Source of the DNA: an uncultured Planctomycetota bacterium
Lineage (GTDB): Bacteria > Planctomycetota > DG-23 > DATKVD01 > CAZVTD01
Length of the DNA stretch: 56,850 nt
Assembly (NCBI GenBank): GCA_964629945.1
Contig: CAZVTD010000001.1
Span: forward strand, 1 to 56,850
Direction: 5' to 3'
In this document: positions 30,506 through 55,200 of the stretch, piece after piece
Layout: each line of letters opens with the position of its first letter
Position numbering within the stretch: position 1 is the first letter of the stretch
The notes under the pieces: model-generated
Databases searched by the model: none
What the model saw: the letters and a program-made list of their open reading frames with translations, nothing else
Told to the model about the DNA's origin: nothing
Position numbers and translations under genes: made by a program

Positions 30506-30550
30506 GTATAATTCTGCGGGTGCTGCACGGTGACGATGCAGGAGCAACCA

Positions 30551-33370: not shown

Positions 33371-33386
33371 TGGCATGCGTTTTGCT
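33371..33386 (+). promoter_or_regulatory. sigma-54 promoter TGGCATgcgttTTGCT
   Basis: It has GG-N10-GC spacing and a TTGCT -12 box, about 85 nt upstream of the adaptor gene. Confidence 0.7.
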
Positions 33387-33470
33387 GTAATGCTCTGGTG
33401 CATAAGGCAAATCGAGGCGTGCCGGACAACAGGACCCGGCACGCGTCTGAACATCGTGCGGAGGTGAATG

Positions 33471-34847: not shown

Positions 34848-34882
34848 TCCGGTCACATAAGGACGTCTCAACGGAGGACGAT

Positions 34883-35623
34883 GTGGTTATGGAATTCATC
34901 GAGCTGCATGACATCCGCAAGACCTATCACATGGGAAACATCGAGGTCCCGGCACTCCAGGGGGTCTCGGTGAAGGTGGCCCGGGGTGACTTCGTCGCCC
35001 TGATGGGTGCGTCGGGATCGGGAAAGAGCACACTGATGCACATCATGGGCTGTCTGGATCACGCCAGCTCCGGTCAGTACTGGCTGGACGGTGAGGAGAT
35101 TTCATGTCTGTCGGCTGACCGAAGGGCATTGGTGCGGAACCACAAGATCGGCTTCGTCTTCCAGAGCTTCAACCTTCTGCCTCGGACCAGCGCGCTCGAC
35201 AATGTAGCCATGCCCCTGACCTACACGGCTGAGAACCTATCCGATCGGCAGGCCCGACAACGTGCCCGGGAGATGCTGGTCCGCGTGGGACTGGCCGAGC
35301 GACTGCATCACGAGCCTTCACAGTTATCGGGCGGACAGCAGCAGCGTGTTGCCATCGCACGGGCTCTGGTCAACTGTCCACCGCTGCTTCTGGCCGACGA
35401 ACCGACGGGGAATCTCGACTCACGAACCAGCGACGAAATCCTGAACATGGTCCGTCAACTCAACGAAGAGGACGGCATCACCATTATCCTGGTGACGCAC
35501 GAACTGGACGTCGCCGAGAGAGCACGACGGACTATCCACATCCGCGACGGTGTGATCGTCAATGGCGAGCCAGGCACGACTGACATTCCTGCCGGTCTGG
35601 CTGTCGCGGGAGAAACGTCATGA
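34883..35623 (+). CDS. ABC transporter ATP-binding protein (MacB/LolD-type)
   Basis: It has Walker [10 protein letters not shown], signature LSGGQQQR and Walker B LLLADEPT. Confidence 0.9.
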
Positions 35624-38746: not shown

Positions 38747-39838
38747 TCACGTGTCATGTCCCTTCGCAGCCGGACCGGCGTCAGGCATAGTCGGCCGGAC
38801 GGCTGTTGGTCGCTTGGCCCGATATCTCTCGGCCAACAGTCCGTGAAGGTGCTCCTTCTTCTCCCCAGGAAGAAAGGCTGCATCAATGCCATTCCTGGCA
38901 AGCTGGAGCATCTCGTCGGCCGTGAAGGCAAAGACTTCCTGGAGCATCACCAGTTCCTCCGTGAGGTTGCTATTGAAGAACAGCGGATCGTCCGATGAGA
39001 CCGTGACCTTGACGCCCGCATCGAAGAGACGGCGGACCGGGTGAGCCTGGATCGAGTCAACCACCCTCAGGCGATAGTTGCTCGTCGGACACATGTCGAG
39101 GGTGATGACGTGCTCGGCGAGGTAGCGCACCAGCTCCAAATCCTCTGCGGCCCTGGTGCCATGGGCAACCCGCGAGACGCCCAGGCAGCGAATGGCTTCC
39201 CAAACGCTCTCAGGGCCGGCGCCCTCGCCGGCATGGGCCCTCAAGCCAAGGCCAGCCTCGCGTGCCGTTTCAAATGCCCCTGTAAATGCCGAGGCGGCAC
39301 TGGCGGTCTCGTGCTCCAACAGATCCACACCGACCACGCCGTACCCCTTGGCGTCTATGGCCTGCCTGACGAAGCCCTGGACGGTATCGGCCAAATCGCT
39401 ACGGAACAGCCCGACGAGGATGCCGAACTCAAGGGCGCCGTCGGGGACGGCCTCGCGCCAGGCCTCGCTTATCGCGTGAGCGATCTCGCCGATCGGGACG
39501 CGGTGCGAGGCGACAGTCACCTCCACATAGATCACATTCTGGGCCCGAAGATCCTCGAATAGCTCACGAGCGATTCGCCTGTAGGTTTCGGCTGATTTCA
39601 TGACGCATGGCGACGCGGTATCGAGGAAATGGCTCAGGTCCTGGAATCGGTAGCGTTTGTCGTGCCAAAGGCTCTGGTCAAGGCGATACGAAGGCTCATC
39701 ATTTCGCCGCAGCTCCACGTACGTGTCCGGGCGTATCGCCCCTTCCAGATGAAGGTGCATCTCGACCTTCGGGATTGTCAACCCATTGATGCTCACGTGC
39801 TCGTCTCCAGCCGACGCCTCTTGCAGGCCCATATCCAC
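38747..39838 (-). CDS. adenosine/adenine deaminase family protein
   Basis: It has the metal and catalytic motifs VEMHLHLEG, HAGE and SSDDP. The start is GTG 39838 or ATG 39832. Confidence 0.85.
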   Translation of the reverse strand: MDMGLQEASAGDEHVSINGLTIPKVEMHLHLEGAIRPDTYVELRRNDEPSYRLDQSLWHDKRYRFQDLSHFLDTASPCVMKSAETYRRIARELFEDLRAQNVIYVEVTVASHRVPIGEIAHAISEAWREAVPDGALEFGILVGLFRSDLADTVQGFVRQAIDAKGYGVVGVDLLEHETASAASAFTGAFETAREAGLGLRAHAGEGAGPESVWEAIRCLGVSRVAHGTRAAEDLELVRYLAEHVITLDMCPTSNYRLRVVDSIQAHPVRRLFDAGVKVTVSSDDPLFFNSNLTEELVMLQEVFAFTADEMLQLARNGIDAAFLPGEKKEHLHGLLAERYRAKRPTAVRPTMPDAGPAAKGHDT

Positions 39839-39961
39839 CCCCGCTGTGTCACACGTCCCCGCTCCCTCTATAAACTCCCGGTGATGTTCGCGCGTATCCC
39901 CGCCCAGCCCAAGCCACCCCTTGCCGGGCAGGCGATTACTTCTGCCCGTCTGTTATGTGGC

Positions 39962-39990
39962 AAGATAAGACTATCTTGAATCCCCGTCAA
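39962..39990 (-). promoter_or_regulatory. candidate sigma-70 promoter, TTGACG-N17-TATCTT
   Basis: The minus strand reads TTGACGgggattcaagatagtctTATCTT. The -10 box is part of an AAGATA-N4-TATCTT inverted repeat. Confidence 0.3.
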
Positions 39991-40113
39991 GGCCAACGTC
40001 GCTCGAGTAGACAATCGAAAGCGAGTGAGCAGACCCCAGGGAATCCGGGTGCACCGCAGGCGGGCACAAACAGTGCCCACCACTCGTGCCACCGTGACCG
40101 CCTGTGTTGACCC

Positions 40114-40413
40114 GTGTCGCGAGATGTTCGCCCAATGGATCAACCGGGCGTAAAGGTTGAGCCGCGGGTTACAGAGCGACTGCTTCTGGGTGGGGTTTGG
40201 GCAAGGAGGCCACGAAGAAGTGTAGCAGAAAGCGCAGCACTTTTTCGCCGAAGTGGTACAAAAAGCGTAACAGCAGGCGACCGCACCGAGCGTTGGCAAT
40301 TAGCAACCGCTCTCACCGACTCTACCTTGGCTGCGGTGATGAACGCTTGGGACAAGCTGCCAGCATCACTTCAACACCTCATTCAGGAAGTCGCCAACAG
40401 CAGCCCTTCATAG
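40114..40413 (+). pseudogene. integrase 3'-tail remnant, copy 2
   Basis: The tail ..VAESAALFRRSGTKS...NAWDKLPASLQHLIQEVANS parallels copy 1 (DKLPAPLQRLIQKVAGG) and copy 3 at the DNA level. No catalytic domain is present. Confidence 0.5.
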
Positions 40414-40516
40414 CCAGCCACGCCAATGCTCGTCACTCAGGGGCGGATCAAGGACTCTTGACTAGCGTCCCAACATAGACAAGGTCTCCTACCGGTGTCC
40501 GCGTTGAGGAAAGCTG

Positions 40517-40549
40517 GCCTCTTCCCGTCTATCTACCGAGGATGTTTTC
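40517..40549 (-). repeat. 33-bp element, 29/33 identical to 22746..22778
   Basis: The plus strand reads gcctcttcccgtctatctaccgaggatgttttc. It spans the last codons (ENILGR), the stop codon and 12 nt downstream of the GltB-like gene. Confidence 0.6.
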
Positions 40550-42112
40550 GACCTCGGCAGCATCGACGTCCATCATGTAGGTGATGCCGCTGATCTCGGC
40601 GGCTTCACGTGTGAGGGCCGCCAGGTCGTCACGCGACAGGAGGTCGAGAGAGAACTTCCGGTTGCCGGCCATGAGCTGCTTGAGTCCGTGTGACAACCGC
40701 TTGTAGTAGGTGTAAAGACCGAGTGCCCCCGTCGGGATCTTCTCGAAGACGGAATCGCCCAGCTCTTTGCGCAGTCCGCTTGCCGTGATGAAGACGTCGT
40801 CGACCGAATCCCCGAAGCGCTCGATATAGACGGGAAGCTGTCGCTGCTCGATGGCCTGTCCGATTGTTTTGCCCACCATGGCTGCCGCGATGGGTGACCT
40901 GGCCATGGCGATCAGTTTCACATAAGGGGACCCCATCGCGAGCCCCTTGTAGATCTGGTCCTCCAGAATGAAGCCTCCGGCCACCGCCAGCGCGGGCAGT
41001 TTCTCGCCTTTTGCCGCCAGCCGCTCAGCATACCGGTGCAGCAGCGAATGGATCTCCACCGGAGGCATGCCCCATTCGTTCATCATGCGCCAGGGACTCA
41101 TCCCCGTGCCACCACCGGCAGCGTCCACGGTCAGCAGGTCCAGCTTGTAACGGGTTGCGAAAACAAGGGCACGCGCCAGGTCGGCAGGACGATAAGCCCC
41201 CGTCTTGAGAAAGATGTACTTCGCCCCCGCCTTGCGCAGTTCATCCACCCGCTGCGCGAACGATTCCTCCGTAATCATCCCGACACGCGAATGCCGCTCG
41301 AACTCCTTGAACGCCCCGCGCTCAAACGCCTGAATCACGGTCTCATCCGTGGGATCGGGCAGCACAATGTAACCCCGCTTGTGCAGCATCTGGGCCTTCT
41401 TGAGGTCGCGGATCTTGACCTCACCCCCGATGTTCTTGGCGCCCTGCCCCCATTTCATCTCCACGCACTCAACGCCGAGTTCCTGGATGGCGTACTCGTG
41501 CACCTTCAGACGCGTGTCTTCCACGTTGGCCTGAACCACAATCGCCCCCCAGCCGTCACGCTGGTGGTCCTGGTACAGCTTGACACGATGCTTGAGGTCC
41601 ACGGTGTCCACCACGCGCCCATCCTTGATGACCGACTGCGGGTCCATGCCGACCACGTTCTCGCCGATGGTGAGTCCGGTGCCCGAGAGCGCGGAGCCGA
41701 TTGCCAGGCCCTCCCAGTTGATCTTGGCGATGTTGGTCGAGCCGATGCCCGCGATGGTCCAGGGATATCTGAACTTGATGCCCTTGTCGTGCCCGAAACG
41801 GACCTCGAGACTGGCCGCCGGAAAGATGGCCTTGTCACTGTCCGCCTCGATGCCGTGCGCCCCCACCGCGGTTCCCATGATGTTGAAGTGGGAGTAGTCC
41901 ACGGGATAGCGCTTGTCGGCAGCGGTCGTGATGACCCCGAACGGCTGGGGATAGATCACCTCGTGGCCCCGATAGGCCGACTTGCCGATTTCGCACATGC
42001 CGATGCAGCCGTCCACACAGGTCACACACATCCCGGAAGCGGGTACAACCGAGCCCTCGGTGCGATTCTTGGTCAGCGTGGCGGCTGAGGCGTTGACGGT
42101 CGAGAATGACAT
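40529..42112 (-). CDS. FMN-binding glutamate-synthase-family protein (stand-alone GltB central-domain homolog)
   Basis: It has an N-terminal Cys cluster (CVTCVDGCIGMCEIGK) and TIM-barrel motifs (VEMKWGQGAKNIGGE, LLTVDAAGGGTGMSP, LAVAGGF). An AGGAG RBS is present. Confidence 0.8.
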   Translation of the reverse strand: MSFSTVNASAATLTKNRTEGSVVPASGMCVTCVDGCIGMCEIGKSAYRGHEVIYPQPFGVITTAADKRYPVDYSHFNIMGTAVGAHGIEADSDKAIFPAASLEVRFGHDKGIKFRYPWTIAGIGSTNIAKINWEGLAIGSALSGTGLTIGENVVGMDPQSVIKDGRVVDTVDLKHRVKLYQDHQRDGWGAIVVQANVEDTRLKVHEYAIQELGVECVEMKWGQGAKNIGGEVKIRDLKKAQMLHKRGYIVLPDPTDETVIQAFERGAFKEFERHSRVGMITEESFAQRVDELRKAGAKYIFLKTGAYRPADLARALVFATRYKLDLLTVDAAGGGTGMSPWRMMNEWGMPPVEIHSLLHRYAERLAAKGEKLPALAVAGGFILEDQIYKGLAMGSPYVKLIAMARSPIAAAMVGKTIGQAIEQRQLPVYIERFGDSVDDVFITASGLRKELGDSVFEKIPTGALGLYTYYKRLSHGLKQLMAGNRKFSLDLLSRDDLAALTREAAEISGITYMMDVDAAEVENILGR

Positions 42113-42121
42113 TGTGCTCTC

Positions 42122-42811
42122 CTATTCTGCTTTGGTAGATCCGGTCGCCCGGTCAGACGGCGGTTCCCCCGTCTTTGAGCGGGATATCTCGGGCCACTCC
42201 GTTTCGGGACTCAACCGACACGCGTCGGCACAGCCTCCGCAGATGGCCTTTTCGGGTTCGTTATAAGTACAGCGAAGCTGACAAGCTGGACAGATATACA
42301 TGCAGGCCCCACAGAATCGGCACACGTCGGAGCGAACGTCGAACGGGGTCCCGATACTTCTGGTTTCACCACGGCCTCGGAAACCGATAGCCTTCGCCGT
42401 CATCTGCTCCTCGCACATGCGCACACACAGGCCGCACAGGATGCAGTCCTCGTGCTCCTGTCGGAATCGCTGCTGGTTCACCCCATGCGCCGAGGCGAGG
42501 TCCTGAATGGTTTTGGACTGCGGACAGGAAGCCAACAGCAGTTCCAGCACCATCTTGCGGGCACGCAGAACGCGGGGCGACGTCGTCCTCACCTTCAGCC
42601 CCTTTTGGACCGGATAGGTGCAGGAAGAAACCAGCTTCGCCCCCGCTCCTTCGCCGATCTCCATTACACAAAGACGACAGGCGCCATACGGCCTCAAGCC
42701 GTCATCGTGACAAAGAGTGGGCACGCTGTAGCCGTAGAATCTTGCCGCCTCCAGCAGCGTCGTCCCTTCTTCTACGCTTACTTTCACCCCGTTCAACGTG
42801 AACTCGATCAT
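42122..42811 (-). CDS. [2Fe-2S]/[4Fe-4S] ferredoxin-like protein (NuoG / HydA N-terminal-type)
   Basis: The N-terminus MIEFTLNGVKVSVEEGTTLLEAA..VPTLCH..GACRLC is of plant-type 2Fe-2S form. It is followed by CILCGLCVRMC and CRFCGACMYICP cluster motifs. Confidence 0.8.
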   Translation of the reverse strand: MIEFTLNGVKVSVEEGTTLLEAARFYGYSVPTLCHDDGLRPYGACRLCVMEIGEGAGAKLVSSCTYPVQKGLKVRTTSPRVLRARKMVLELLLASCPQSKTIQDLASAHGVNQQRFRQEHEDCILCGLCVRMCEEQMTAKAIGFRGRGETRSIGTPFDVRSDVCRFCGACMYICPACQLRCTYNEPEKAICGGCADACRLSPETEWPEISRSKTGEPPSDRATGSTKAE

Positions 42812-42839
42812 TGCCGTCCTTCCCCGGCCAATTCAGTGC

Positions 42840-44690
42840 TCATCTCACCTCCACGGCGTCGAACTTGCAGACCGTCTTACAGGCCCCGCACTTGGTGCAT
42901 CGAGCGGAATCGATCCCGTGCTGTTTCTTCTTCTCTCCACGGATGGCATCAACGGGGCAGACTTTGACACAGCGACGACAGCCCGTGCAATTCTCATTGA
43001 TGGAATAGGTGATCAGTTCCTTGCAAACTCCGGCCGAACAGTGTTTCCTCTCGATGTGCTGGAGATATTCGTTTCGGAAATATCGCAGCGTGGAAAGCAC
43101 CGGGTTTGGGGAGGTCTGACCCAGGCCGCACATGGCCGTGTCCTTGACCACCGGAGCCAACTCCTCCAGGAGACCCAGGTGCTCGACGGTTCCCTTGCCG
43201 CTCGAAATATCATCAAGGATTTCAAACATGCGCTGCGTGCCCTTTCGGCAGGTGAAGCATTTGCCGCAGGACTCATCCTTGAGGAAATGGGTGAAGTACT
43301 TGGCAATGTCGACCATGCACGTCCGCTCGTCCATGACGATCATGCCGCCCGAGCCCATGATGCTGCCGGCTTTCGACAGGCTCTCGTAGTCAATCGTCAT
43401 GTCAAAACGGTCCGCGGGAATGCGGCCCCCTGAAGGTCCTCCCGTCTGAACCGCCTTGATGGGCACCCCGTCGGACGGACCACCTCCGATGTCATGGACG
43501 ATCTTGTCGATGGTGATCCCCATGGGGACTTCCACCAGCCCGGTGTATTTGATCTTCCCGACCAGGCTGAAGATCTTCGTCCCGGGGCTGTCCTTGGTCC
43601 CAACCCGTCTGAACTCCTGAGCGCCGCGAGTGATGATGACGGGGATGTAGGCCCAGGTCTCGCGGTTATTGATGAGCGTGGGCTTGCCCTGAATGCCTTT
43701 CTCCACCGGGAAAGGCGGCCGCTGACGCGGCTCCCCGCTCCTCCCCTCCACCGAATGGATAAGAGCGGTCTCTTCCCCGCAGACAAATGCACCGGCGCCC
43801 CTCACCAACTGGAGGTCGAAGGAGAATCCCGTTCCCAGAATGTCCGCTCCGAGGAGTCCCAGTTCACGGGCTTGGCGCAGGGCAACGTTCAAATTTCTTA
43901 CCGCCAGGGGATACTCGTCGCGAACATAGAGGACACCCTCGGCAGCCCCCGTGGCGTAGGCGCCGATGAGCATGCCTTCGATGATGCCGTGCGGATTGCC
44001 CTCCAGAAGGCTTCGGTCCATATACGCGCCAGGGTCGCCTTCGTCGCCGTTGCATACCAGGTACTTTGGACCTGATTTCTTCTGCCCGGCCAGCATCTCC
44101 CATTTCGTCCCAGTGGGAAAGCCGGCTCCGCCGCGACCGCGCAGACCTGACGCCTTTACCTCTGCCAGCACCTTCTGGGGCTCGTCCTGGTCCAGGACCT
44201 TGGCGATTCCCGAATACCCCCCCTGTTCGATGTACGTGTGAATCCGGATGGGATCCACCCTCTCGTTGCAGCTCATCAGCGTGCGCACCTGGTCTCTGAA
44301 AAAGGGCAGTTCGGACTGCTTTCTCCCCCTGGACCCCGTCACCGGATCAACGTAAAGCAGGTCCTCAACGACGTCGCCCGCTGCCGCCGCAATGACGATA
44401 CGCTCCACATCCTTGACGTTGACCTTCGGGTAGAAAATGCCTTCCGGCTCCACCAGGATGGAGGGCTCCATCTGACAGAACCCGTGACACCCGGTCACCC
44501 GAAGCGAAACCCGTTTCGTGAGCTTGTGTCGAAGGAGTTCCTTCTTCGCGGCACGGATGAGAGCGTTGGCGCCGCTGGCCTGTCCACACGTGCCGGCTGG
44601 AATCACGAGGGTGGATGTCCGTCCGGCATGCCCTTCGACGAGACGCAACCTCAGAGCATCCAGATCCTCAATGCTGGTCAGCCTGCCCAT
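42840..44690 (-). CDS. NuoF/HydB/HndC-like NAD(P)H-binding flavoprotein with extra Fe-S domains
   Basis: It has GRGGAGFPTGTKWE (FMN/NADH site) and ESCGKCFTCRKGT (N3 cluster). There is an N-terminal thioredoxin-like 2Fe-2S domain (TGCHGFCQMEP) and a C-terminal 2x[4Fe-4S] domain (CTGCRRCVKVCP, CTKCGACKTVC). Confidence 0.85.
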   Translation of the reverse strand: MGRLTSIEDLDALRLRLVEGHAGRTSTLVIPAGTCGQASGANALIRAAKKELLRHKLTKRVSLRVTGCHGFCQMEPSILVEPEGIFYPKVNVKDVERIVIAAAAGDVVEDLLYVDPVTGSRGRKQSELPFFRDQVRTLMSCNERVDPIRIHTYIEQGGYSGIAKVLDQDEPQKVLAEVKASGLRGRGGAGFPTGTKWEMLAGQKKSGPKYLVCNGDEGDPGAYMDRSLLEGNPHGIIEGMLIGAYATGAAEGVLYVRDEYPLAVRNLNVALRQARELGLLGADILGTGFSFDLQLVRGAGAFVCGEETALIHSVEGRSGEPRQRPPFPVEKGIQGKPTLINNRETWAYIPVIITRGAQEFRRVGTKDSPGTKIFSLVGKIKYTGLVEVPMGITIDKIVHDIGGGPSDGVPIKAVQTGGPSGGRIPADRFDMTIDYESLSKAGSIMGSGGMIVMDERTCMVDIAKYFTHFLKDESCGKCFTCRKGTQRMFEILDDISSGKGTVEHLGLLEELAPVVKDTAMCGLGQTSPNPVLSTLRYFRNEYLQHIERKHCSAGVCKELITYSINENCTGCRRCVKVCPVDAIRGEKKKQHGIDSARCTKCGACKTVCKFDAVEVR

Positions 44691-44705
44691 GTGGCAAATC
44701 CTGTT

Positions 44706-45602
44706 CTAAGCCCTGGCGGCTTTCGTCCGTGAAAGCTCTCGGCCGGAAAGCAGGTCCGCGGAGTCCCGACCGATGTCAAGCATATGTCCGTTGCACCCGT
44801 AACGAGCGCAGAGACGAAGTGCACAGTCCTCGCCCATCCACAACACGGCCGTGGAAGAACCGCATTCCGGACAGGACCCGTCCCGAAGCACGCTGTGCCG
44901 GCAATGCGGACAACTCAGATCCAGAACCGTCCCCTCCGGAACCGTGAGACTCGATTCCCGACGAGGATCCCCATACCGCGCGCAACACCAGAGATCTGCA
45001 CGACCTCCGTCAAGGGAAGTCTCCAGGTGAATCGAAGGATGCCCGCCGATAGGCCGCTTCGGGTCCATGAGAGATACCCCGCACGAGGGGCACGTCACGT
45101 CGACCTCGAAAGTCACCCCGGTCGGGTCCACGTCCGACCTGTCCCGTCCATTGCGGAATTTATCAACAATCTCCGTCACCTTCGCGCCGTCCACCTGGGA
45201 GAAGCAGTGCTGGTCCACCATGACGATCGGACCCAGAGCGCACGCTCCCAGACAATTCACCGTCTCCAGTGTGAACTGCCCGTCCGCCGTGGTTTCGCCG
45301 GGCTGAATGCCCAGAACGCGTGCGAGCCCGTCCCGGACGCCCCCGGCACCCCGAACGTGACAAGCCGTGCCCAGGCAGACACGCACCAGGTGCTTGCCCC
45401 GAGGCTTCAGGCTGAACGCCTTGAAGAATGTCGCCACGGCATAGACGTCCACCAGAGACCGACCGGTTCCTTCGGCAACCTTCTCCAACACCTCACGCGG
45501 AAGATATCCGTATGCCGACTGGACTTCCTGAAGAATGCCGATGAGGCCGCCGTGATCGTTCCGGTGCTTGCTCAGTATCTCATCGATCGTTTGCGGAATC
45601 AT
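44706..45602 (-). CDS. NuoE/HndA-like [2Fe-2S] protein with a ~145-aa Cys-rich C-terminal extension
   Basis: The NuoE core is VRVCLGTACHVRG..VNCLGACALGP. I trimmed the start to the ATG at 45602 (GGAG upstream). The tail contains CPSC, CPHC, CPEC and two CARYG motifs. Confidence 0.8.
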   Translation of the reverse strand: MIPQTIDEILSKHRNDHGGLIGILQEVQSAYGYLPREVLEKVAEGTGRSLVDVYAVATFFKAFSLKPRGKHLVRVCLGTACHVRGAGGVRDGLARVLGIQPGETTADGQFTLETVNCLGACALGPIVMVDQHCFSQVDGAKVTEIVDKFRNGRDRSDVDPTGVTFEVDVTCPSCGVSLMDPKRPIGGHPSIHLETSLDGGRADLWCCARYGDPRRESSLTVPEGTVLDLSCPHCRHSVLRDGSCPECGSSTAVLWMGEDCALRLCARYGCNGHMLDIGRDSADLLSGRELSRTKAARA

Positions 45603-45656
45603 ACCCGACTCCAGGCTTCTGACGCTTTCAGACGAGGGCGGACCGCACCACACCGA

Positions 45657-45947
45657 CTACTGGTACTCCTCGCAATGCCACACGCCGCTCTCCGGTTTGA
45701 GGAAGGTACAGCTGTCGAAGTTGGTGCAGTTCGCGCACAGACCTTTGATGTTGGACGCAAGACCGGGAACGGGATTCCCCCGAGCCCGGGTCTTGGGACG
45801 TGCCTGACGACCTGCTGCAACCGCCGCCATCACACACTCATATTCCTCACACTGAAGGACCGGTTGTTTAGAACCTTTCGGGTACGTGCAGGCGGCAGCG
45901 TGCCTGCAGTTCAAACATAGCCCGCGATATCCAGTGCTTTCTTCCAC
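45657..45947 (-). CDS. small Cys-rich protein with two GLCxNCx5C...CEEY repeats (function unknown)
   Basis: The repeats are GLCLNCRHAAACTYPKGSKQPVLQCEEYE and GLCANCTNFDSCTFLKPESGVWHCEEYQ. I re-set the start to GTG 45947, with GGAGG 7 nt upstream. The ATG at 46082 lies upstream of the predicted sigma-54 promoter. Confidence 0.6.
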   Translation of the reverse strand: MEESTGYRGLCLNCRHAAACTYPKGSKQPVLQCEEYECVMAAVAAGRQARPKTRARGNPVPGLASNIKGLCANCTNFDSCTFLKPESGVWHCEEYQ

Positions 45948-46026
45948 AGGTTCGCCTCCGATAGATCGCAATGCTTCGGTTCTTATGCGGGGCTTGTCGA
46001 AGCCCGCCGCTGTCGCACGTACAGTA

Positions 46027-46042
46027 AGCAAATGGCGTTCCG
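46027..46042 (-). promoter_or_regulatory. candidate sigma-54 promoter cGGAACgccatTTGCT
   Basis: The minus strand reads CGGAACGCCATTTGCT, with correct GG-N10-GC spacing and a TTGCT -12 box. It lies downstream of the bEBP gene and about 80 nt upstream of GTG 45947. Confidence 0.5.
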
Positions 46043-46212
46043 AAACCCGGATCTCGGTCCTCTGAAAGAGAGAAGTGAACAACCCGGAAGGGAAAAGGAT
46101 TCCGCAAGGTCATTTCTAACAAGGAGTTACAGCGAGGGTCACGTCTTCAGTCTCTGCAGGGAATCGCCGGACCAAACAGGAAGGACATACAGCCGGACCG
46201 GGGAATAACGCC

Positions 46213-46237
46213 CCGGTGGGGAAATCGACCCCACCGG
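46213..46237 (-). terminator. 9-bp GC-rich hairpin just after the bEBP stop (weak intrinsic terminator or bEBP site)
   Basis: CCGGTGGGG-aaatcga-CCCCACCGG begins 5 nt after the stop at 46243. The downstream T-tract is poor (GTTATT). Confidence 0.35.
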
Positions 46238-46242
46238 TGGGC

Positions 46243-47592
46243 TCATTCCGAAGAGACCTCTTCTCCAAGCCATTTCCGGAGCGTCTTCCGATCGATGCCG
46301 AGGATGCGGGCTGCCTGGGTCTTGTTGCCGCCGACGCTGGCCAGCACGTTGCGCACGTGTTCCGTCTGCACCTCGACCAGTGTGCGGTCAAGACCCGTTC
46401 GACGCAGTGCCGAGAAGCGCATCAGGGACGGAAGATCGGGAACATCCACGATATCCCCTTCACTCATCAGGACCAGACGATGCATGACGTTCTGCAGTTC
46501 CCTGACGTTCCCCGGCCAGGGGTAGCTCCTCAGGACCTGCAGGGCCTTGTCCGAAAACTTTGGCACCGGCCTGCCCAATTCCCGAGCGAACTGCGCCGCG
46601 AAGTGACGGGTCAGAAGAAGAATGTCATCACCCCTGTCACGCAGGGCCGGGAGAGTGATTGCAATGACGTTCAACCGGTAGAAGAGATCTTCCCGGAAAA
46701 GGTCTTTCTTCACCAGCTCCACCAGATCTCGATTGGTCGCGGCCAGGATTCTGACGTCCACTTTTCTCGCCCGAGTCGTTCCGACCATGCAGACTTCCTT
46801 GTCTTCCAGCACCCGCAGTAGTTTGGCCTGCATGGCCGCACTCGTGTCTCCCACCTCGTCGAAAAAGAGCGTCCCTCCGTCTGCCGTCTGAAAGAAGCCG
46901 GCTCGGGATTCCGTGGCCCCCGTGAACGCACCTTTCACGTGTCCGAACAGTTCGCTCTCCAGGAGCGACTCCGGAATTCCCGCACAGTTCACCGGAACAA
47001 ACGGGGCCGAGGCGCGCAAGCTGTTGTAGTGAATGGCGCGTGCGACGACCTCTTTGCCCGTTCCGCTCTCTCCCGACAACAGCACCGTGACATCGGTCTG
47101 GGCCGCCTTGGAAATCGCGCGCAGCGTCTCACGCATGATCTTCGATTCGCAGACGAGACCATAGCGGTTCTCCGCGGCCAGGTCCGTGCTCGGACGACCA
47201 GCCCGCCTCATGTGCAGCTTCTCCAGTGCTCTTCGTACCCCGGCAAGAAGCTCCTCGTCGGTGAACGGTTTCCGCAGATACTCCTCGGCCCCGGCCTTGA
47301 CCGCATCCACGGCCCCCTCCACCGTGGCATAGCCGGTGATCATCATGACCTCGGTGTCTCTGCAGTTCTCACGGACGTGCCTGACCAGCTCAAGCCCGCT
47401 GACTCTCGGCATCTTCAGGTCCGTGATGACCAGGTCCACCGGCGTCTTCTCCAGGATCCCGATGGCCTCGGCGACGCTGGGAGCAGTGAACACCCGATAG
47501 CCCACGGACTCCAAATTCCTTTGCAGCACCTCCACGGTATCCGGGGCATCATCCACCACCAGAACGGATTCTCTGCTTGCCGCAGCGTTCAT
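46243..47592 (-). CDS. sigma-54-dependent response regulator (NtrC family bEBP)
   Basis: It has a receiver domain (LVITDLKMPRVSG), GESGTGKE, GAFTGA and a Fis-type HTH (NKTQAARILGIDRKTL). The ATG at 47592 lies 1 nt after the kinase stop. Confidence 0.9.
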   Translation of the reverse strand: MNAAASRESVLVVDDAPDTVEVLQRNLESVGYRVFTAPSVAEAIGILEKTPVDLVITDLKMPRVSGLELVRHVRENCRDTEVMMITGYATVEGAVDAVKAGAEEYLRKPFTDEELLAGVRRALEKLHMRRAGRPSTDLAAENRYGLVCESKIMRETLRAISKAAQTDVTVLLSGESGTGKEVVARAIHYNSLRASAPFVPVNCAGIPESLLESELFGHVKGAFTGATESRAGFFQTADGGTLFFDEVGDTSAAMQAKLLRVLEDKEVCMVGTTRARKVDVRILAATNRDLVELVKKDLFREDLFYRLNVIAITLPALRDRGDDILLLTRHFAAQFARELGRPVPKFSDKALQVLRSYPWPGNVRELQNVMHRLVLMSEGDIVDVPDLPSLMRFSALRRTGLDRTLVEVQTEHVRNVLASVGGNKTQAARILGIDRKTLRKWLGEEVSSE

Positions 47593-47593
47593 C

Positions 47594-49168
47594 TCAGCCC
47601 GTCTCCTCTCCGGCTGGCCCGCCGTCCACGGGCAGCCTGATCTCAAACCGCGTGCCTCGTCCAACCTCGCTCTCCACGTGGATCAGCCCGCCGTGCGACG
47701 TGACGATGCCGTGCACCACCGGAAGTCCAAGACCGGTCCCCTCGCCGATGTCCTTCGTGGTAAAGAAGGGCACGAAGATCTGTTTCACAGTCTCCGGACT
47801 CATCCCGACGCCCGTGTCTTCGATCACGAGGAAAACGTCTTCTCCCGACGTCCGCGTCTCCACCTTCAGCTTGCCACCCTCGGGCATGGCCTGGATGGCG
47901 TTGACCACCAGGTTCACCAGCACCTGCGTCAGCAGCGCCGCGTCGCCTACCATGTCAGGCAACCCCGGCAACAAGGAACGCTGGACCTCAATTCCCGCTT
48001 TGACACAGCGCGCTTCCAGGAAGTAGAGTCCTTCTTCAATGACCGTGTTCAGGTTGATCGACGTCTTTTTCGATGGCACCTGGCGTGCGAAGACGAGCAG
48101 TTTGCTGATGATCTCCCGGGCGTGGACCGCTGCCCGTTCGATTTTGCCGAGGTCATGACCGGCCTGCTCCGGCAAGCCGGAACTCTTCTTGGCCAGTTGA
48201 GCGAAGCCGAGGATATTGCCGAGCGGCTCGTTCAACTCGTGTGCGACGCCCGCTGCCAGCTGCCCGATGGTCGCCAGCCGGTCGGCGTGCATGAGCTGCT
48301 CCTGCAACTGCGACCTCTCCACTTGGGTCTGACGCCTCTCAACGATGAACCCTACCTGTCGAGCCACCGCGTCGATGAGATGCCGTTCTTCTCTCAGAAA
48401 CGGACCTTCGTCACGCTCCGGCTTTGCCTCGGGATAGGCAACCTCCACGGAACCCCTTGACTGCCCTTTGACCAGGATGCCGGCTCGCTGCGTCTGCTCA
48501 CTTCCCAACCAGCTTCCGGTCGAATACTCCTGCCCGTCCAGCAGAATCCGTGCTATTGCGTCGGGATACTGCCAGGCCGGGGGAAGCAGTGCGACGATGC
48601 GCCGCATCATGTCTTCCAGAGAAATTCCGGGCGTTTCCGTGACCTGCGCTATCCCGTAGAGACACGTCAGCTCCTTGACGCGTTCCCGGAGCGCAGCGTG
48701 CGAGCGTTGACCGACTAATGCCGTCGCCAGCGCCTGGGCAACGTCCTCATAGCAGCCCCGCTCGGTCTTTGTCGGTCCCCCGCTTCTTCGCCAGGTCAGG
48801 AACAGGGTCCCAATTCTCATCTGTCCCACCGCCAGAGGAAGGATGACCCGTAGTCTCCCTGATTCCTCAGAAGCTCCGGAGGGAACCGGCGAGATGCTCT
48901 CTTCGACTGGCTTTTTGAACTTCGTGACTTCAAGACAAGGCGGGCCTTCACCGTTCCCTCTCGAACGGTATTGAGTGATGTGGTTCCCGTCCATGACCTG
49001 GAGCTCGACCTCTTCGCACCCCGAGAAGCCCATGAGTATGCCCGCAACCTCAGAGGCATATTCCGCTTCAGGCAGTCCGGAAAGCGCCTGTTCCAGGATG
49101 CGGCGCGACAACACCCGGAACTCTTCCTGCGAATGACCCGTCTGGACACACTTCACGGCATCCCTCAC
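47594..49168 (-). CDS. cytoplasmic GAF-domain sensor histidine kinase
   Basis: No TM segment is seen. GAF-like N-terminal modules are followed by an H-box (VAHELNEPLGNILGF) and HATPase motifs (NLVVNAIQA, GTGLGLPVV). The start is GTG 49168. Confidence 0.85.
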   Translation of the reverse strand: MRDAVKCVQTGHSQEEFRVLSRRILEQALSGLPEAEYASEVAGILMGFSGCEEVELQVMDGNHITQYRSRGNGEGPPCLEVTKFKKPVEESISPVPSGASEESGRLRVILPLAVGQMRIGTLFLTWRRSGGPTKTERGCYEDVAQALATALVGQRSHAALRERVKELTCLYGIAQVTETPGISLEDMMRRIVALLPPAWQYPDAIARILLDGQEYSTGSWLGSEQTQRAGILVKGQSRGSVEVAYPEAKPERDEGPFLREERHLIDAVARQVGFIVERRQTQVERSQLQEQLMHADRLATIGQLAAGVAHELNEPLGNILGFAQLAKKSSGLPEQAGHDLGKIERAAVHAREIISKLLVFARQVPSKKTSINLNTVIEEGLYFLEARCVKAGIEVQRSLLPGLPDMVGDAALLTQVLVNLVVNAIQAMPEGGKLKVETRTSGEDVFLVIEDTGVGMSPETVKQIFVPFFTTKDIGEGTGLGLPVVHGIVTSHGGLIHVESEVGRGTRFEIRLPVDGGPAGEETG

Positions 49169-49837: not shown

Positions 49838-51373
49838 GTGTCTAACAATTCTAAGCCCAGTGGACCCACTGGCAGACCCGCAGGCTATGCCGCCCTTATA
49901 CGGCGATATGATCTGCGGGTCATTCCCAACTGGCATGAGTCTGTGGTCGGTTCGTCCGGCTCCCGACAAACCCACCAGGATGGCCTGCGCATCCGTGAGC
50001 TCTTTCCAGCATCCTATTGGCCTGGGGATGGTCTTGGTGACCAGTTGGAATTCGCGCTGAAATACGATGGCATCAACCTGTCAATTCTAGCCCTGCTCTT
50101 CCAGAAGATCAACCTACAGGAACTGACTGACTACATCCGCTCGAAGCCAACCGGATGGAACGCCAGGAGGATCTGGTATCTCTATGAGTTCCTGACAAGG
50201 AAACGCCTGGAGCTCGATGACCTGATCCAGGGCAACTACGTCGACCTTCTCGATGTAAAGTCATACTACACCGCGAAACCGCGAAGGGTGCGCCGTCAGC
50301 GCATTAACGACAACCTTCTTCAGGGACCGGACTTCTGTCCTGTCGTTCGCCGCACGGCACGATTGGAAGAGTTCGTCAAATCCGATCTTCGGGCGAAGTG
50401 CCTTGACCTGGTCGAGTCCTATCCAGAGGACGTTCTCAATCGGGCCCTGAGTTACCTCTATACCAAGGAGACCAGGTCCTCCTATGAAATCGAGCACGTG
50501 CCCACTGACACATCAAGGACCGAGCGCTTCGTGACTCTGCTGCGTCAAGCAGAGAAGGATGACTTCCTTGGCAGAGAATCCCTGGTTGCCCTTCAGAACC
50601 AGATCGTCGACGAGCGTTTCAGGGACCGGGATTACCGGAAGAGTCAGAACTATGTTGGAGAAGCTGTGCAGTGGCAGAGAGAGCGAGTGCACTTCGTCTC
50701 CCCTAAGCCGGAAGACTTGGCAAGCCTGATGGAAGGGCTGCTCGCAATTCACGAACGGATGGTCGAGAGCGATGTCGATCCCGTCATTCACGCTGCCATT
50801 GTGGCCTTCGGGTTTGTGTTCATTCACCCGTTCGAGGACGGGAACGGGCGAATCCACCGGTTCCTCATCCACAACATCCTGTCCAGAAGGGGATTCACTC
50901 CGAAAGGGGTCATGTTCCCCGTGTCGGCGGCGATGCTGAACGGCCGGGCGGCCTATGATGCGGCGCTGGAAGCGTTTTCCAGACCGCTGTTGCGTCTGGT
51001 GGACTACACGCTCGATGATGTTGGCCAGATGACCGTCCACGGCGAGACAGCGGAATACTATCGCTACATCGACCTGACGACCCAGGCCGAGGCGTTGTTC
51101 GACTTCATAGCCAGAACCATTGAGACGGACCTTGTCAACGAACTGGAGTTCCTGCGGAGCTACGATGGTGCGAAGAAGGCCATCCCTGAGATCGTGGACC
51201 TGCCGGATAGGCTTCTCGACCTGTTCATCAGGTTCTGTCTGCAAAACAAAGGGGAGCTGTCAGCTGGAAAGCGAGCCAGGTTCTTCGCCAGCCTGACCGA
51301 TGCCGAAATTCAGAAGATGGAGCGTGCACTTCAGGAGGCCTTCCACCTCACAACTCCGGATGCACTTGGATAG
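49838..51373 (+). CDS. Fic family protein (AMPylase/adenylyltransferase fold)
   Basis: The core motif is HPFEDGNGRIHRF. The start is GTG 49838, with AGGAGA 7 nt upstream. Confidence 0.9.
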   Translation: MSNNSKPSGPTGRPAGYAALIRRYDLRVIPNWHESVVGSSGSRQTHQDGLRIRELFPASYWPGDGLGDQLEFALKYDGINLSILALLFQKINLQELTDYIRSKPTGWNARRIWYLYEFLTRKRLELDDLIQGNYVDLLDVKSYYTAKPRRVRRQRINDNLLQGPDFCPVVRRTARLEEFVKSDLRAKCLDLVESYPEDVLNRALSYLYTKETRSSYEIEHVPTDTSRTERFVTLLRQAEKDDFLGRESLVALQNQIVDERFRDRDYRKSQNYVGEAVQWQRERVHFVSPKPEDLASLMEGLLAIHERMVESDVDPVIHAAIVAFGFVFIHPFEDGNGRIHRFLIHNILSRRGFTPKGVMFPVSAAMLNGRAAYDAALEAFSRPLLRLVDYTLDDVGQMTVHGETAEYYRYIDLTTQAEALFDFIARTIETDLVNELEFLRSYDGAKKAIPEIVDLPDRLLDLFIRFCLQNKGELSAGKRARFFASLTDAEIQKMERALQEAFHLTTPDALG

Positions 51374-51456
51374 TCACTGGATCGGGGCAGAACGTAACTT
51401 GGTACGACTCCATGCGAGTCGGTGCCACGCAGTTCCCCTTGGTGCAACTCTCTCAC

Positions 51457-51543
51457 AGCCACGAGGGACCGAACGATCGCCTTTTCGGGCCCAAGAACGC
51501 CGATTTCGGAGACCAGCGTAGCAGGAAACGTATCACTTTCTTC
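51457..51543 (+). repeat. direct repeat B (~87 bp) downstream of fic
   Basis: The sequence is cagccacgagggaccgaacgatcgccttttcgggcccaagaacgccgatttcggag..gcgtagcaggaaacgtatcactttctt. It is the partner of repeat A. Confidence 0.6.
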
Positions 51544-51612
51544 TGCCCACGATTCAGCCACCGTTATGGCCGTTTGCCTCAATCTCCACGCAGTTCTCCG
51601 ATGCGCAATGCT

Positions 51613-51660
51613 GGAGGTCGCAGGTTCAAAGCGGAGGCAGGATTCGAACCTGCGACCTCC
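51613..51660. repeat. 15-bp perfect inverted repeat GGAGGTCGCAGGTTC / GAACCTGCGACCTCC with an 18-nt spacer
   Basis: The arms lie at 51613-51627 and 51646-51660. The right arm is part of the tRNA fragment, and the left arm is an inverted copy of its variable/T-stem region. Confidence 0.7.
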
Positions 51661-51670
51661 GGGTTATGAG
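51630..51670 (-). other. tRNA-Met/Ile2(CAU)-like 3' half (att-site-type fragment, not a functional tRNA)
   Basis: The minus strand reads CTCATAA-CCCGG-AGGTC-GCAGG-TTCGAAT-CCTGC-CTCCGCT. These are the anticodon loop, 3' anticodon stem, variable loop, complete T-arm and 3' acceptor strand. No matching 5' half lies upstream. Confidence 0.65.
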
Positions 51671-51706
51671 TGTCCGAAAGCTGATTCCTGCTGTCATCTG
51701 AACCGA

Positions 51707-52123
51707 TCACGGCAGCTTTCGTTTCGCTCTTTTCGGTTTCGCGTCGAAGAGCTTCAGCACCTTCTCGCGAAGATACCGCTGAACGAAAGAGTTCATGGTG
51801 CCGTCGGGATAGAGCACCCGGTTGCCGATGAGCAGCTCCAGTTTTCTGTCAAACAGGCGGTCATAGACAACCGACTTCGCAATGAGTTCCTCTCGCGAGT
51901 ACTGGGCGTTCTTCCACAACCATTGCCATACCTCGCTTTCGGTATCGGTGGTTAATGGGCTGAGCTTGGAGATTCTACGAACGGTGATGTTGGACCAGGC
52001 CAGTACGATCTTGGTCAGTGCTTCATCCTCACCCACGACCAGGACGGTCTCCGGCTTCTCGTTCTTCTTGAACCATTCCAACTTTTCGTCAAACAGGTCG
52101 TTCTCCAAAGCACTTCTCCTCAT
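51707..52123 (-). CDS. hypothetical 138-aa protein with a basic C-terminal tail (KPKRAKRKLP)
   Basis: This clean ORF is the last gene of the four-gene minus-strand operon, 13 nt after the DUF523 stop. I recognise no family. Confidence 0.55.
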   Translation of the reverse strand: MRRSALENDLFDEKLEWFKKNEKPETVLVVGEDEALTKIVLAWSNITVRRISKLSPLTTDTESEVWQWLWKNAQYSREELIAKSVVYDRLFDRKLELLIGNRVLYPDGTMNSFVQRYLREKVLKLFDAKPKRAKRKLP

Positions 52124-52136
52124 TGACGGGGCCGAT

Positions 52137-52613
52137 TCAGGGGACTCTTATCACTCTTATGCCCGCACGACGGAGCACCTCGCCGGTCACTCCCTCACGG
52201 TCACAGGACGGACTGCCACCCTTTAGATACGCGCGACGGGCTCCCACGATCCTCGCAATCTCAAGCGTGTAATTTGCACCGTCCACATGAAAGTCAGTCA
52301 CGTCACGGCCGTTCTCGGGTGCGATGATACGTAACCCTTCGTCCAAGACCTGTGCCCCGGTTCCGCCGGCGAGAGTCTCGCCTGTCCGAGGTGTGGGCAT
52401 GCCGCCCAACTGTTCGGGGCAAACAGGCACCAATACGTACTTCTTCTTGAGTTGGCGGATGAGCTTGTCCCGCCTCTTTGCCCGGCGGCCATGCCAGCGA
52501 CAAGGCACCCCCAGGAAACAGGCACTGATCAAAATGGGCTCCAACAGAGGACGAGCCTCTCCATCGGCAAAGAGGGTTCCGGTTGCAGGTTTCATGTCGG
52601 CAGTCCTCTTCAT
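52137..52613 (-). CDS. DUF523 / TudS-like [4Fe-4S] protein (thiouracil desulfidase family)
   Basis: ISACFLGVPCRWHG and VPVCPEQLGG supply the three family Cys residues. An alternative start is ATG 52595 (GAGGA upstream). Confidence 0.7.
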   Translation of the reverse strand: MKRTADMKPATGTLFADGEARPLLEPILISACFLGVPCRWHGRRAKRRDKLIRQLKKKYVLVPVCPEQLGGMPTPRTGETLAGGTGAQVLDEGLRIIAPENGRDVTDFHVDGANYTLEIARIVGARRAYLKGGSPSCDREGVTGEVLRRAGIRVIRVP

Positions 52614-52622
52614 GTCGTATGA

Positions 52623-53795: not shown

Positions 53796-53797
53796 AT

Positions 53798-55069: not shown

Positions 55070-55172
55070 CCCTAACTCCCATTTAACAAAGAACTTATGT
55101 TGACGATACATCCCCGATTGCCTATGAGGCGCTCGGCACGGAGATCGACAGAGACAGTCCCCGCACCAGTAC

Positions 55173-55200
55173 AGTGTAGCACGCATTACAGGATTGTCAA
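55173..55200 (-). promoter_or_regulatory. sigma-70 promoter TTGACA-N16-TACACT for the methyltransferase operon
   Basis: The minus strand reads TTGACAatcctgtaatgcgtgcTACACT. It sits in an AT-richer divergent intergenic region. Confidence 0.5.

Follow-up and report, generated by a model that had tools for sequence, protein, structure and literature searches.

What does an electron-input module of the NuoE/NuoF type do when the enzyme encoded beside it is a relative of glutamate synthase? The question is raised by seven genes, all on the minus strand (40529-49168), in a 56,850-nt stretch of contig CAZVTD010000001.1 from an uncultured Planctomycetota bacterium (the whole stretch is referred to as the window). 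Genes for a sensor histidine kinase and an NtrC-family bacterial enhancer-binding protein (bEBP) are followed by a predicted sigma-54 promoter and by five structural genes, encoding a 96-aa Cys-rich protein, a NuoE-like, a NuoF-like and a ferredoxin-like (Fd-like) protein, and a stand-alone protein related to the flavin mononucleotide (FMN) domain of the glutamate synthase subunit GltB. We propose, as an evenly balanced judgement, that the products may form one complex, an ammonia-dependent glutamate synthase without amidotransferase that would be driven by NADH plus ferredoxin. All seven genes were found in the order, on the strand and at the coordinates first noted for them in the initial annotation of this DNA, with gaps of 54, 15, 28 and 9 nt among the five structural genes.

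The cassette was surveyed using one genome per species, the best 80 loci, at GltB-like identities of 76-81%, being taken. Relatives of the GltB-like protein number thousands, the best 120 being 79-96% identical to it, and the whole cassette from the kinase to the GltB-like gene is present in at least 80 species genomes of at least 12 phyla, with GltB-like identities of 76-82%. The carriers include Planctomycetota (Phycisphaerae, Pirellulales, Sedimentisphaerales), Verrucomicrobiota, Zixibacteria, Latescibacterota, Marinimicrobia, Ignavibacteria, Melioribacteraceae, Chlorobiaceae, other Bacteroidota, Acidobacteriota, Spirochaetales, Desulfobacterota (Syntrophorhabdus, Syntrophobacterales), Myxococcales, Eisenbacteria and Coatesbacteria. 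By tblastn with the window proteins, the same seven-gene order was detected wherever the contig was long enough, at identities of 31-45% for the Cys-rich protein, 43-58% for NuoE, 59-72% for NuoF and 70-83% for Fd. The gene order, whose co-occurrence the initial annotation had proposed to survey, recurs in dozens of loci of unrelated phyla, and for this reason the seven-gene arrangement is far beyond chance. A scan for terminators and sigma-70 promoters inside the operon gave no site above chance, and the argument for co-transcription is therefore carried by the short gaps and the synteny. The bEBP is 60-71% identical across phyla; for a regulator to keep 65% identity from one phylum to another implies horizontal movement of the whole cassette, including its sensor, as a unit. 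The features of the window copy are listed in Table 1; loci of other genomes are denoted below by L numbers.

Table 1. Features of the operon and of its control region, with coordinates in the window
Feature	Position	Strand	Observation
Sensor histidine kinase	47594-49168	-	HisKA 1.4e-11 and HATPase_c 6e-27 (Pfam)
NtrC-family bEBP / response regulator	46243-47592	-	REC, Sigma54_activat, AAA_lid_14, HTH_8; GAFTGA loop
Tandem GGGG-N7-CCCC palindromes, predicted activator site	46197-46235	-	
Predicted sigma-54 -24/-12 promoter, CGGAACGCCATTTGCT	46027-46042	-	80 nt 5' of the first operon gene
96-aa Cys-rich open reading frame (ORF)	45657-45947	-	GTG start, GGAGG 7 nt 5'; first operon gene
NuoE-like (BfuC/HydC), 298 aa	44706-45602	-	ATG behind GGAG; PF01257 1.2e-47
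NuoF-like (BfuB/HydB), 616 aa	42840-44690	-	Trx-like N-terminus, Complex1_51K, NADH_4Fe-4S, 2x[4Fe-4S]
Fd-like, small BfuA, 229 aa	42122-42811	-	Fer2_4 2e-18 and Fer4_7
GltB-like (PF01645), 527 aa	40529-42112	-	PF01645 37 bits

The NuoE-, NuoF- and Fd-like trio is a predicted module of the HydABC/Bfu type, because the NuoF-like protein matches proven bifurcating HydB, NfnB and WorB from end to end and carries the ligands of the B1-B4 clusters. This protein (Complex1_51K, 1e-44; NADH_4Fe-4S, 4e-30 in Pfam) aligns over its full length with NiFe-HydB of Acetomicrobium mobile in the Protein Data Bank (PDB; 7t2r_B, 689 bits), and it also matches HydB 7q4v_B (678 bits) and 8a6t_B (672 bits), NfnB 9n5u_B (655 bits), WorB 9mqx_B (653 bits) and Thermotoga maritima HydB 7p5h_B (595 bits). 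The beta subunits of non-bifurcating formate dehydrogenases (FDH) and NuoF reach 383 bits at most and are without both terminal domains. The ESCGKC...C and MCGLGQ motifs of the B1 site align with 7t2r_B, the C-terminal B3/B4 sites (CTGCRRCVKVCP...CTKCGACKTVC) lie in Fer4 matches at residues 565-614, and all Cys of B1, B3 and B4 are present. At the B2 site, located in YLQHIERKHCSAGVC, alignment with A. mobile HydB gives C438 to C, C476 to S, H525 to H, C531 to C and C536 to C. The ligand list of B2 includes a His that non-bifurcating homologues lack, and Thr occupies the position of this Ser in two-thirds of BfuB (Schut et al. 2022, PMC9304861).

The other two members of the trio agree with this assignment of the initial annotation, which had named a NuoEF plus NuoG-N module for NAD(P)H input or bifurcation. 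The best PDB match of the NuoE-like protein is bifurcating HydC (8a6t_C, 2.8e-44), and its C1 [2Fe-2S] ligands (C76, C81, C117, C121) are invariant. The NuoE-like protein also bears a family-specific C-terminal extension of about 130 aa in which eight Cys and a single His are conserved (C171, C174, C231, C234, C244, C247, C265, C270 and H273, each at least 90% conserved). The Fd-like protein is closest to WorA (9mqx_A, 1.6e-38, residues 2-191); besides the [2Fe-2S] ligands it contains two [4Fe-4S] motifs of the ferredoxin type and the extra invariant C177, C181, C191 and C194, and it is devoid of the His-ligated cluster. Altogether PF01645, PF01257, Complex1_51K and Fer2_4 were matched in the proteins in which they had been expected, and, as also noted from the start, no glutaminase, hydrogenase or FDH subunit is encoded in the operon.

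As to the catalytic partner, the GltB-like protein is, from its motifs, a very divergent relative of the FMN/synthase domain of GltB. The initial annotation had called it a homolog of the GltB central domain; the relationship to GltB stands, with the correspondence moved from the 'central domain' of glutamate synthase (GltS) to its FMN/synthase domain. The PF01645 match (37.1 bits, cut-off 20.4) is weak and partial, covering residues 279-400 alone, and all relatives of the protein carry a precomputed PF01645 match; in NCBIfam no model for the protein was found. The motifs of the GltB-like protein and of Escherichia coli GltB align colinearly across the synthase site, in the following pairs (GltB-like first): ECVEMKWGQGAK (MKWGQGAK) and DVIQIKVAQGAK (IKVAQGAK), LHKR (including R246) and AKLR, LPDP and SPPP, FLKT (including K303) and SVKL, DLLTVDAAGGGTGMSP (GGGTGMSP) and DLITIAGYDGGTGASP (DGGTGASP), and VAGGF and VDGGL. 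The motif residues of the GltB-like protein, Q223, K226 and R246 included, do not vary among 84 sequences of two subfamilies; we take these three to be the counterparts of Q969, K972 and R992 of the 2-oxoglutarate site of GltS. The AlphaFold2 model built from these 84 sequences (predicted local distance difference test, pLDDT, 85.4) is an FMN TIM barrel; an earlier run with 29 sequences of about 80% identity (pLDDT 54) was discarded. An N-terminal CX2CX3CX3C motif (C29, C32, C36, C40) is invariant. The N-terminal-nucleophile (Ntn) glutaminase, central and GXGXG domains are absent from the protein, and neither the operon nor the related loci were found to hold a GATase or GXGXG gene.

Support for a glutamate-synthase-type enzyme comes from the relatives. 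A fusion of NuoF with GltD was found in 43 of 61 complete relatives, while about 15 have the short form of the window. In the fused NuoF (1080 aa in L007 and most others), Fer4_20 plus Pyr_redox_2 domains of the GltD/NfnL type replace the 2x[4Fe-4S] domain. GltD is the natural reductase partner of GltB, and the fusion is thus independent support for an enzyme of this type. The absence of GltD, as first annotated, is true of the window and false of the family, in which NuoF-GltD fusions are common. A gene for a GdhA-type glutamate dehydrogenase (GDH) adjoins the cluster in 10 of the 80 loci, on the same strand in eight, mostly without the kinase and activator close by. Such flanking same-strand genes are seen in L055 (5263-6636 and 11795-13054), L035, L040, L049, L059 and L073. 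An operonic GDH next to a glutamate-synthase-like enzyme could possibly form a substrate cycle acting as a transhydrogenase.

A second line of support is a sister subfamily that is encoded alone. An exhaustive search of 1.84 billion cluster representatives gave a compact family, with 168 representatives at E<=1e-30, including a second tight subfamily (P0271-P0390, 'FMN-binding glutamate synthase family proteins') of the same length and about 47% identity. Its members share with the window protein the 4-Cys motif at the N-terminus as well as the active-site residues, and their genes stand without NuoEF/Fd genes and without the sigma-54 two-component system. Among the neighbours in four individually inspected loci are glutamine synthetase (GS) in an Archaeoglobus metagenome-assembled genome, an Amt-PII-GATase-NadE-GS-regulator-NrpR array in another organism, and GAF-ANTAR with GDH nearby in Desulfosarcina. 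Among 80 metagenome loci (L093-L172), GDH is a neighbour in 14, immediately 3' in at least nine (33-57 nt 3' in at least seven, within 200 nt in nine), and NrpR-like proteins were found in 16, GAF-ANTAR in seven, Amt in four and a class-II (GltB-type) glutaminase in four. These nitrogen-assimilation neighbours tie the family to the metabolism of glutamate, 2-oxoglutarate and ammonia. The glutamate-synthase-like reading first put forward for the window is thus backed by the GltD fusions, by GDH and by the sister subfamily, and the reaction itself is what we infer from them. In the same set of loci hisF adjoins the sister gene in 20 of 80 (for example L148 3313-4700 and L114 3076-4463), often 16-56 nt 5', and hisH, the glutaminase subunit, adjoins it in seven of 80.

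The existence of this sister subfamily without NuoEF genes nearby also bears on the possibility that the window encodes two unrelated neighbour enzymes, one a BfuABC module whose partner is encoded elsewhere or is another protein, the other a GltB-like enzyme of the sister-subfamily type that works alone with ferredoxin. We regard this as very improbable. The Fd gene lies directly before the GltB-like gene in all of about 78 loci with enough flank (at the 9-nt distance in the window) and NuoF is next 5' in all loci that are long enough, while no hydrogenase, FDH or WOR is present as an alternative partner; moreover, the NuoEF-associated subfamily forms a distinct, tightly conserved clade.

Several results weigh against a single glutamate synthase complex with NADH and ferredoxin input. 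The GltB-like sequence matched no PDB chain, and the family profile reached GltB in the PDB search at E=0.13, with de novo TIM barrels ranking higher. Global hhalign alignment with the FMN domain of E. coli GltB was uninformative and only local alignments were useful, the local one covering about 80 residues (320-398, about 1e-4). In Foldseek the top matches of the model were lactate monooxygenase, glycolate oxidase, flavocytochrome b2 and type 2 isopentenyl diphosphate isomerase (IDI-2), at E of about 1e-11 and TM-scores of 0.43-0.47; alpha-hydroxy-acid oxidases and IDI-2 thus outrank GltB, which is outside the top 50. An invariant Glu231 replaces Gln978 of the GGQ motif, and the CX5CX4C [3Fe-4S] site is absent, E. 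coli C1102/C1108/C1113 being without counterpart; given these two differences, the substrate could differ from that of GltB. Of the cofactor ligands presumed at the outset, the FMN motifs align, and the [3Fe-4S] Cys are missing with the N-terminal 4-Cys motif present instead.

Further points on the same side concern the input module, the energetics and the promoter. The N-terminal Trx-like domain of the NuoF-like protein (residues 29-72) is present with three of the four B5 Cys (C35, C68, C72): Pro stands in place of the first ligand, and the second lies one residue away from its usual position ('VIPAGTCGQ' versus the canonical 'VICAGTACQ'). This three-Cys form ('AGTCGQASG') is found in most relatives and the canonical four-Cys form ('CAGTACQASG') in a minority (L007, L042, L048, L074, L075), which suggests that the B5 cluster may be altered or lost in most family members. 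A bifurcating Nfn-Bfu enzyme is known that is active with Zn at B5 (PMC12018979), and the missing ligand weakens the Bfu assignment without excluding it. The ferredoxin-binding domain is missing in most relatives. The third substrates usual for Bfu enzymes lie at potentials far below that of the 2-oxoglutarate/glutamate couple. An enzyme without glutaminase, and hence dependent on ammonia, appears redundant beside GDH. Finally, the predicted promoter of the window is a weak consensus match (cGGaAC-N5-TTGCt, with two mismatches to TGGCAC-N5-TTGC), unremarkable by chance within the window alone.

The great distance from canonical GltB, together with an insertion of about 19 residues after the LPDP motif, the Glu in place of the GGQ Gln and the different Fe-S site, would fit an enzyme acting on another substrate (a different 2-oxo acid, an imine, an N-substituted glutamate or a non-amino-acid acceptor), in which case the operon might be catabolic, detoxifying or redox-balancing. 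The lack of any NCBIfam model naming the family, the adenosine deaminase encoded by the next gene in the window, and a dedicated sensor with an unclassified domain, which would not be expected for general nitrogen control, are in line with such an enzyme. We consider it quite unlikely, since the counterparts of the 2-oxoglutarate site (Q, K and R) are invariant, the deaminase neighbour is not conserved, and the GltD fusions, the adjacent GDH and the genes around the sister subfamily (GS, NrpR, Amt, GAF-ANTAR) speak for glutamate, 2-oxoglutarate and ammonia. Two specific candidates were rejected: N-methylglutamate synthase, as no MgsA- or MgsB-like genes are present, and an enzyme like dihydropyrimidine dehydrogenase, as the barrel has the motifs of GltB and not those of dihydroorotate dehydrogenase (DHODH).

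If the products do form one glutamate synthase complex, its working can be pictured as follows. The kinase would sense a cytoplasmic signal and phosphorylate the NtrC-family activator, which would bind the two GGGG-N7-CCCC dyads about 155-195 nt 5' of the sigma-54 promoter and switch the operon on; that the signal is 2-oxoglutarate or nitrogen status is a guess. NADH would be oxidised at the FMN of NuoF in a core of the HydBC/BfuBC type, and reduced ferredoxin would most likely enter at the C-terminal 2x[4Fe-4S] domain (B3/B4). Electrons of middle potential might then pass from B1 through the clusters of the WorA-like BfuA and the N-terminal 4-Cys cluster to the FMN of the GltB-like subunit, where 2-iminoglutarate, formed from 2-oxoglutarate and free ammonia, would be reduced to L-glutamate. 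The driving force would be provided by NADH plus ferredoxin in the window and by NADH plus NAD(P)H, through the fused GltD, in most relatives. We infer in this scheme the assembly into one complex, the substrate, the direction, the coupling of NADH with ferredoxin and the signal.

We estimate the standard potential of the couple of 2-oxoglutarate plus ammonium and glutamate at about -0.12 to -0.16 V. At micromolar ammonium and with a large glutamate pool, the couple would fall to about -0.3 V or below, which is close to the NADH couple of the cell or past it. With ferredoxin as an added donor, or with NADPH where GltD is fused, amination would then stay favourable without the ATP cost of GS. 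A tentative and somewhat unlikely extension of the scheme is that the complex is an electron-confurcating glutamate synthase, which would combine electrons of NADH with those of reduced ferredoxin (or of NADPH where GltD is fused) and aminate 2-oxoglutarate with free ammonia at ammonium levels too low for NADH- or NADPH-dependent GDH, as an ATP-free alternative, for anaerobes, to the GS-glutamate synthase (GS-GOGAT) pathway, equipped with its own two-component system sensing 2-oxoglutarate or nitrogen and spread horizontally over more than 12 phyla. The reverse process, glutamate oxidation driving ferredoxin reduction, was rejected as thermodynamically implausible.

The same complex could use the same substrate with no energy coupling, the NuoEF-type module serving as a plain NADH input with extra Fe-S clusters as a relay, as in NAD-dependent FDH or the Hox hydrogenases; the enzyme would then be an ordinary glutamate synthase that depends on NADH and ammonia. 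Under standard conditions NADH alone suffices, since the potential of the 2-oxoglutarate/glutamate couple lies above that of NADH; one Cys ligand of B5 is missing; and the replacement of the ferredoxin-binding domain by GltD in 43 of the 61 relatives implies that ferredoxin is not essential to the chemistry of the family. We nevertheless judge an uncoupled enzyme to be unlikely. All features by which bifurcating HydB differs from non-bifurcating NuoF, HoxF and FdsB are kept in the window NuoF, namely an N-terminal domain, a B2 site with His and Cys, and a 2x[4Fe-4S] domain at the C-terminus, and the nearest solved relatives of this NuoF are all bifurcating (650-690 bits versus 383 bits at most); as for B5, a Bfu enzyme is active with Zn at this site (PMC12018979).

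The regulatory genes at the head of the cassette form a two-component pair with a conserved promoter and a conserved upstream site, in agreement with the NtrC-type bEBP and dedicated sensor control first proposed. The bEBP gave Pfam matches to Sigma54_activat (4.6e-69), Response_reg (2e-28) and HTH_8 (1e-9). Orthology to NtrBC, AtoSC or ZraSR was not indicated, all scores against the NCBIfam equivalog models being under the cut-off (AtoC 425 versus 714, NtrC 416 versus 559, AtoS 223 versus 646). Homologues of the kinase (42-63% identical) are encoded directly 5' of the bEBP in about 45 loci. The sensor kinase is, by prediction, cytoplasmic with a GAF-like N-terminal domain. Its annotation as a GAF kinase is secure for the kinase part (HisKA, HATPase_c) and weakest for GAF, the GAF_2 match being sub-threshold (E=0.057) though over the full profile length; a homologue of the kinase has a weak precomputed GAF match. 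A domain of the GAF type binds 2-oxoglutarate in NifA.

Between the GAF-like domain and HisKA the kinase contains a second, unclassified sensor domain of about 125 aa (residues 158-283, window 48320-48697). The same domain (KELxCLY...WQYP...GPFL) is also found at the N-terminus of PPDK_N proteins of 900-1000 aa among relatives, and this recurrence suggests a shared ligand. A gene of this composition, for a sensor-domain/PPDK_N protein resembling phosphoenolpyruvate (PEP) synthase, lies directly 3' of the GltB-like gene in L075 (11627-14584), L025, L071, L077, L080 and L084, and further 3' in L063; for the stand-alone subfamily, a REC-PPDK_N protein is encoded in the same position in five loci (for example L103 9822-12788).

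The sigma-54 promoter was first recognised in the window, where the copy is imperfect; what stands is its position, since the equivalent position is conserved in most of 41 related loci. In these loci the interval between the activator and the Cys-rich gene holds strong TGGCAC-N5-TTGC elements such as TGGCACGATTATTGCT and TGGCACGGCAGTTGCT, 36 of the 41 scoring at least 12.5 of 15.5. The hairpin noted upstream of the promoter has a real stem of 9 bp (46213-46237), and it is more likely a predicted tandem activator-binding site than a terminator, because its palindrome stands twice in tandem and is conserved from phylum to phylum. The two copies, GGTGGGGTCGATTTCCCCACC (46215-46235) and ACCGGGGCGTTATTCCCCGGT (46197-46217), overlap and are 18 nt apart. 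GGGG-N7-CCCC is the commonest dyad in the upstream regions by k-mer and dyad counts, and 20 of 37 loci have cCGGGGA-N5-TCCCCGg at a distance of 100-210 nt 5' of the -24 element, compared with a mean of 0.8 and a maximum of 4 in shuffled sequences. The terminator reading was rejected, the dyad being conserved and present twice.

The first product of the operon, the 96-aa protein, is predicted to be a metal- or Fe-S-binding partner of the complex. It consists of two CX2CX5CX(11-12)C-EEY repeats, and eight Cys (C11, C14, C20, C33, C71, C74, C80, C92) are invariant in 38 loci that have it in the same position. It gave no Pfam or NCBIfam match, and a search for homologues returned 14 small stand-alone proteins and no informative fusion. 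A second copy of an 8-Cys small protein is encoded 3' of the GltB-like gene in L016 (12252-12554) and L048 (12481-12771).

Among the closest known systems is WorABCSL, the tungsten aldehyde oxidoreductase-Bfu complex of A. mobile (PDB 9MQX), in which WorA is a small BfuA (247 aa) without the His-ligated A3 cluster and with a C-terminal Cys4 site, docked to a separate catalytic subunit (PMC12318220). Both have a BfuBC core and a small BfuA feeding a separate catalytic subunit, and WorB and WorC also match strongly. WorSL, however, is a tungstopterin enzyme that oxidises aldehydes (E' about -580 mV), whereas the window has a single GltB-type FMN/4-Cys protein, and the 130-aa Cys-rich extension of NuoE and the extra 8-Cys small protein are further features of the window. 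The NfnABC/Stn enzymes of Sporomusa ovata and Thermococcus sibiricus combine the BfuBC core with a GltD/NfnL-type NADPH module (flavin adenine dinucleotide, FAD, and 2x[4Fe-4S]), and the same module is found in the 43 fused relatives. In Nfn, however, the GltD-like domain is part of BfuA and forms the third-substrate site, whereas the relatives have GltD fused to the C-terminus of BfuB and a GltB-like subunit in addition; the window has its own version without GltD.

The GltBD enzymes of Azospirillum brasilense and E. coli and the ferredoxin-dependent GltS share the synthase motifs and an Fe-S route to FMN, but they are proteins of about 1500 aa with glutaminase, central and GXGXG domains, compared with 527 aa and an input of the NuoEF/HydBC type in the window. 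In HydABC of Thermotoga maritima, Acetobacterium woodii and Thermoanaerobacter kivui, HydB and HydC match over their full length, at 595-678 and 119-155 bits, respectively; unlike HydABC, the window has no H-cluster domain and its BfuA is cut to the N-terminal Fe-S domain.

A survey of the Bfu family lists as partners hydrogenase, FDH, Nfn, F420, Wor, Bam, carbon monoxide dehydrogenase (CODH), Por, Mbh, Nuo and rubrerythrin, and leaves 18 of 57 clades unassigned; its text and one supplementary file contain no mention of glutamate synthase (PMC9304861). The Wor-Bfu paper describes no GltB-type partner (PMC12318220), and the Nfn-Bfu paper names glutamate synthase solely as the enzyme from which the NfnL-like domain evolved (PMC12018979). 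No published description of a complex of such composition was found in the literature searched, which omits most subscription journals. By these comparisons the catalytic partner would be new for a Bfu complex and the reductase new for an enzyme of the glutamate synthase type, both being otherwise of known kinds, and the composition, first annotated as undescribed, has no characterised match in this literature or in the Bfu survey.

If the glutamate synthase reading is true, a new third reaction is added to the Bfu family and a new architecture to a textbook enzyme class; with confurcation, it would be the first member of the Bfu family whose third reaction forms an amino acid, and the first glutamate synthase to be fed by an input of the NuoEF type. 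The reconstruction of nitrogen assimilation would change in Planctomycetota, Zixibacteria, Ignavibacteria, Acidobacteriota, Desulfobacterota and many candidate phyla, whose genomes at present carry separate labels for these genes ('NuoF', 'NuoE', 'FMN-binding glutamate synthase family protein'). The compact and highly conserved cassette makes the proposal directly testable by heterologous expression, and the two natural NuoF variants, with the ferredoxin or the GltD domain, offer a comparison for the low-potential branch of Bfu enzymes.

In the window itself, the operon had been placed on an accessory module. This was not borne out: its GC content (0.60-0.61) equals the window average, and no mobility genes bracketing it were found. 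The identity seen between phyla speaks for an earlier horizontal transfer of the cassette, but nothing marks it as mobile or accessory in this genome. Lower GC content (0.55-0.57) starts 5' of the kinase, and the stretch 49838-55186 could be a small island, with a Fic-domain gene (49838-51373, plus strand), a radical SAM gene like that of spore photoproduct lyase (52623-53795, minus strand) and a ParB-N/N6_N4 DNA methylase fusion (53798-55186, minus strand).

On the 3' side, the GltB-like gene is followed by a 690-nt gap (39839-40528) with a sole ORF (39868-40299, 143 aa, no Pfam match). For the gap neither an Rfam match nor a repeat within the window was obtained, and blastx and blastn gave no relative beyond the source organism; over the whole window, scans for Rfam families and tRNAs returned nothing. 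The adenosine/AMP deaminase gene beyond it (38747-39838, minus strand) is present in all four contigs of the source organism and in none of the 80 related loci, and its product is therefore probably outside the system. A second sigma-54 unit lies at 30490-36990 on the plus strand, with a perfect TGGCACGGGATTTGC (30490-30504) before a kinase/bEBP pair (30530-33141) and TGGCATGCGTTTTGC (33371-33385) before a MacAB-type efflux operon (membrane-fusion protein, ABC ATPase and FtsX permease). A two-partner secretion (TPS) pair at 7694-16007 (minus strand) consists of a transporter of the ShlB/FhaC type and a 2145-aa exoprotein that has a TPS domain and, at its C-terminus, EF-hands, and near the pair two very large GH2-related proteins are encoded (18635-22522 and 22794-27341).

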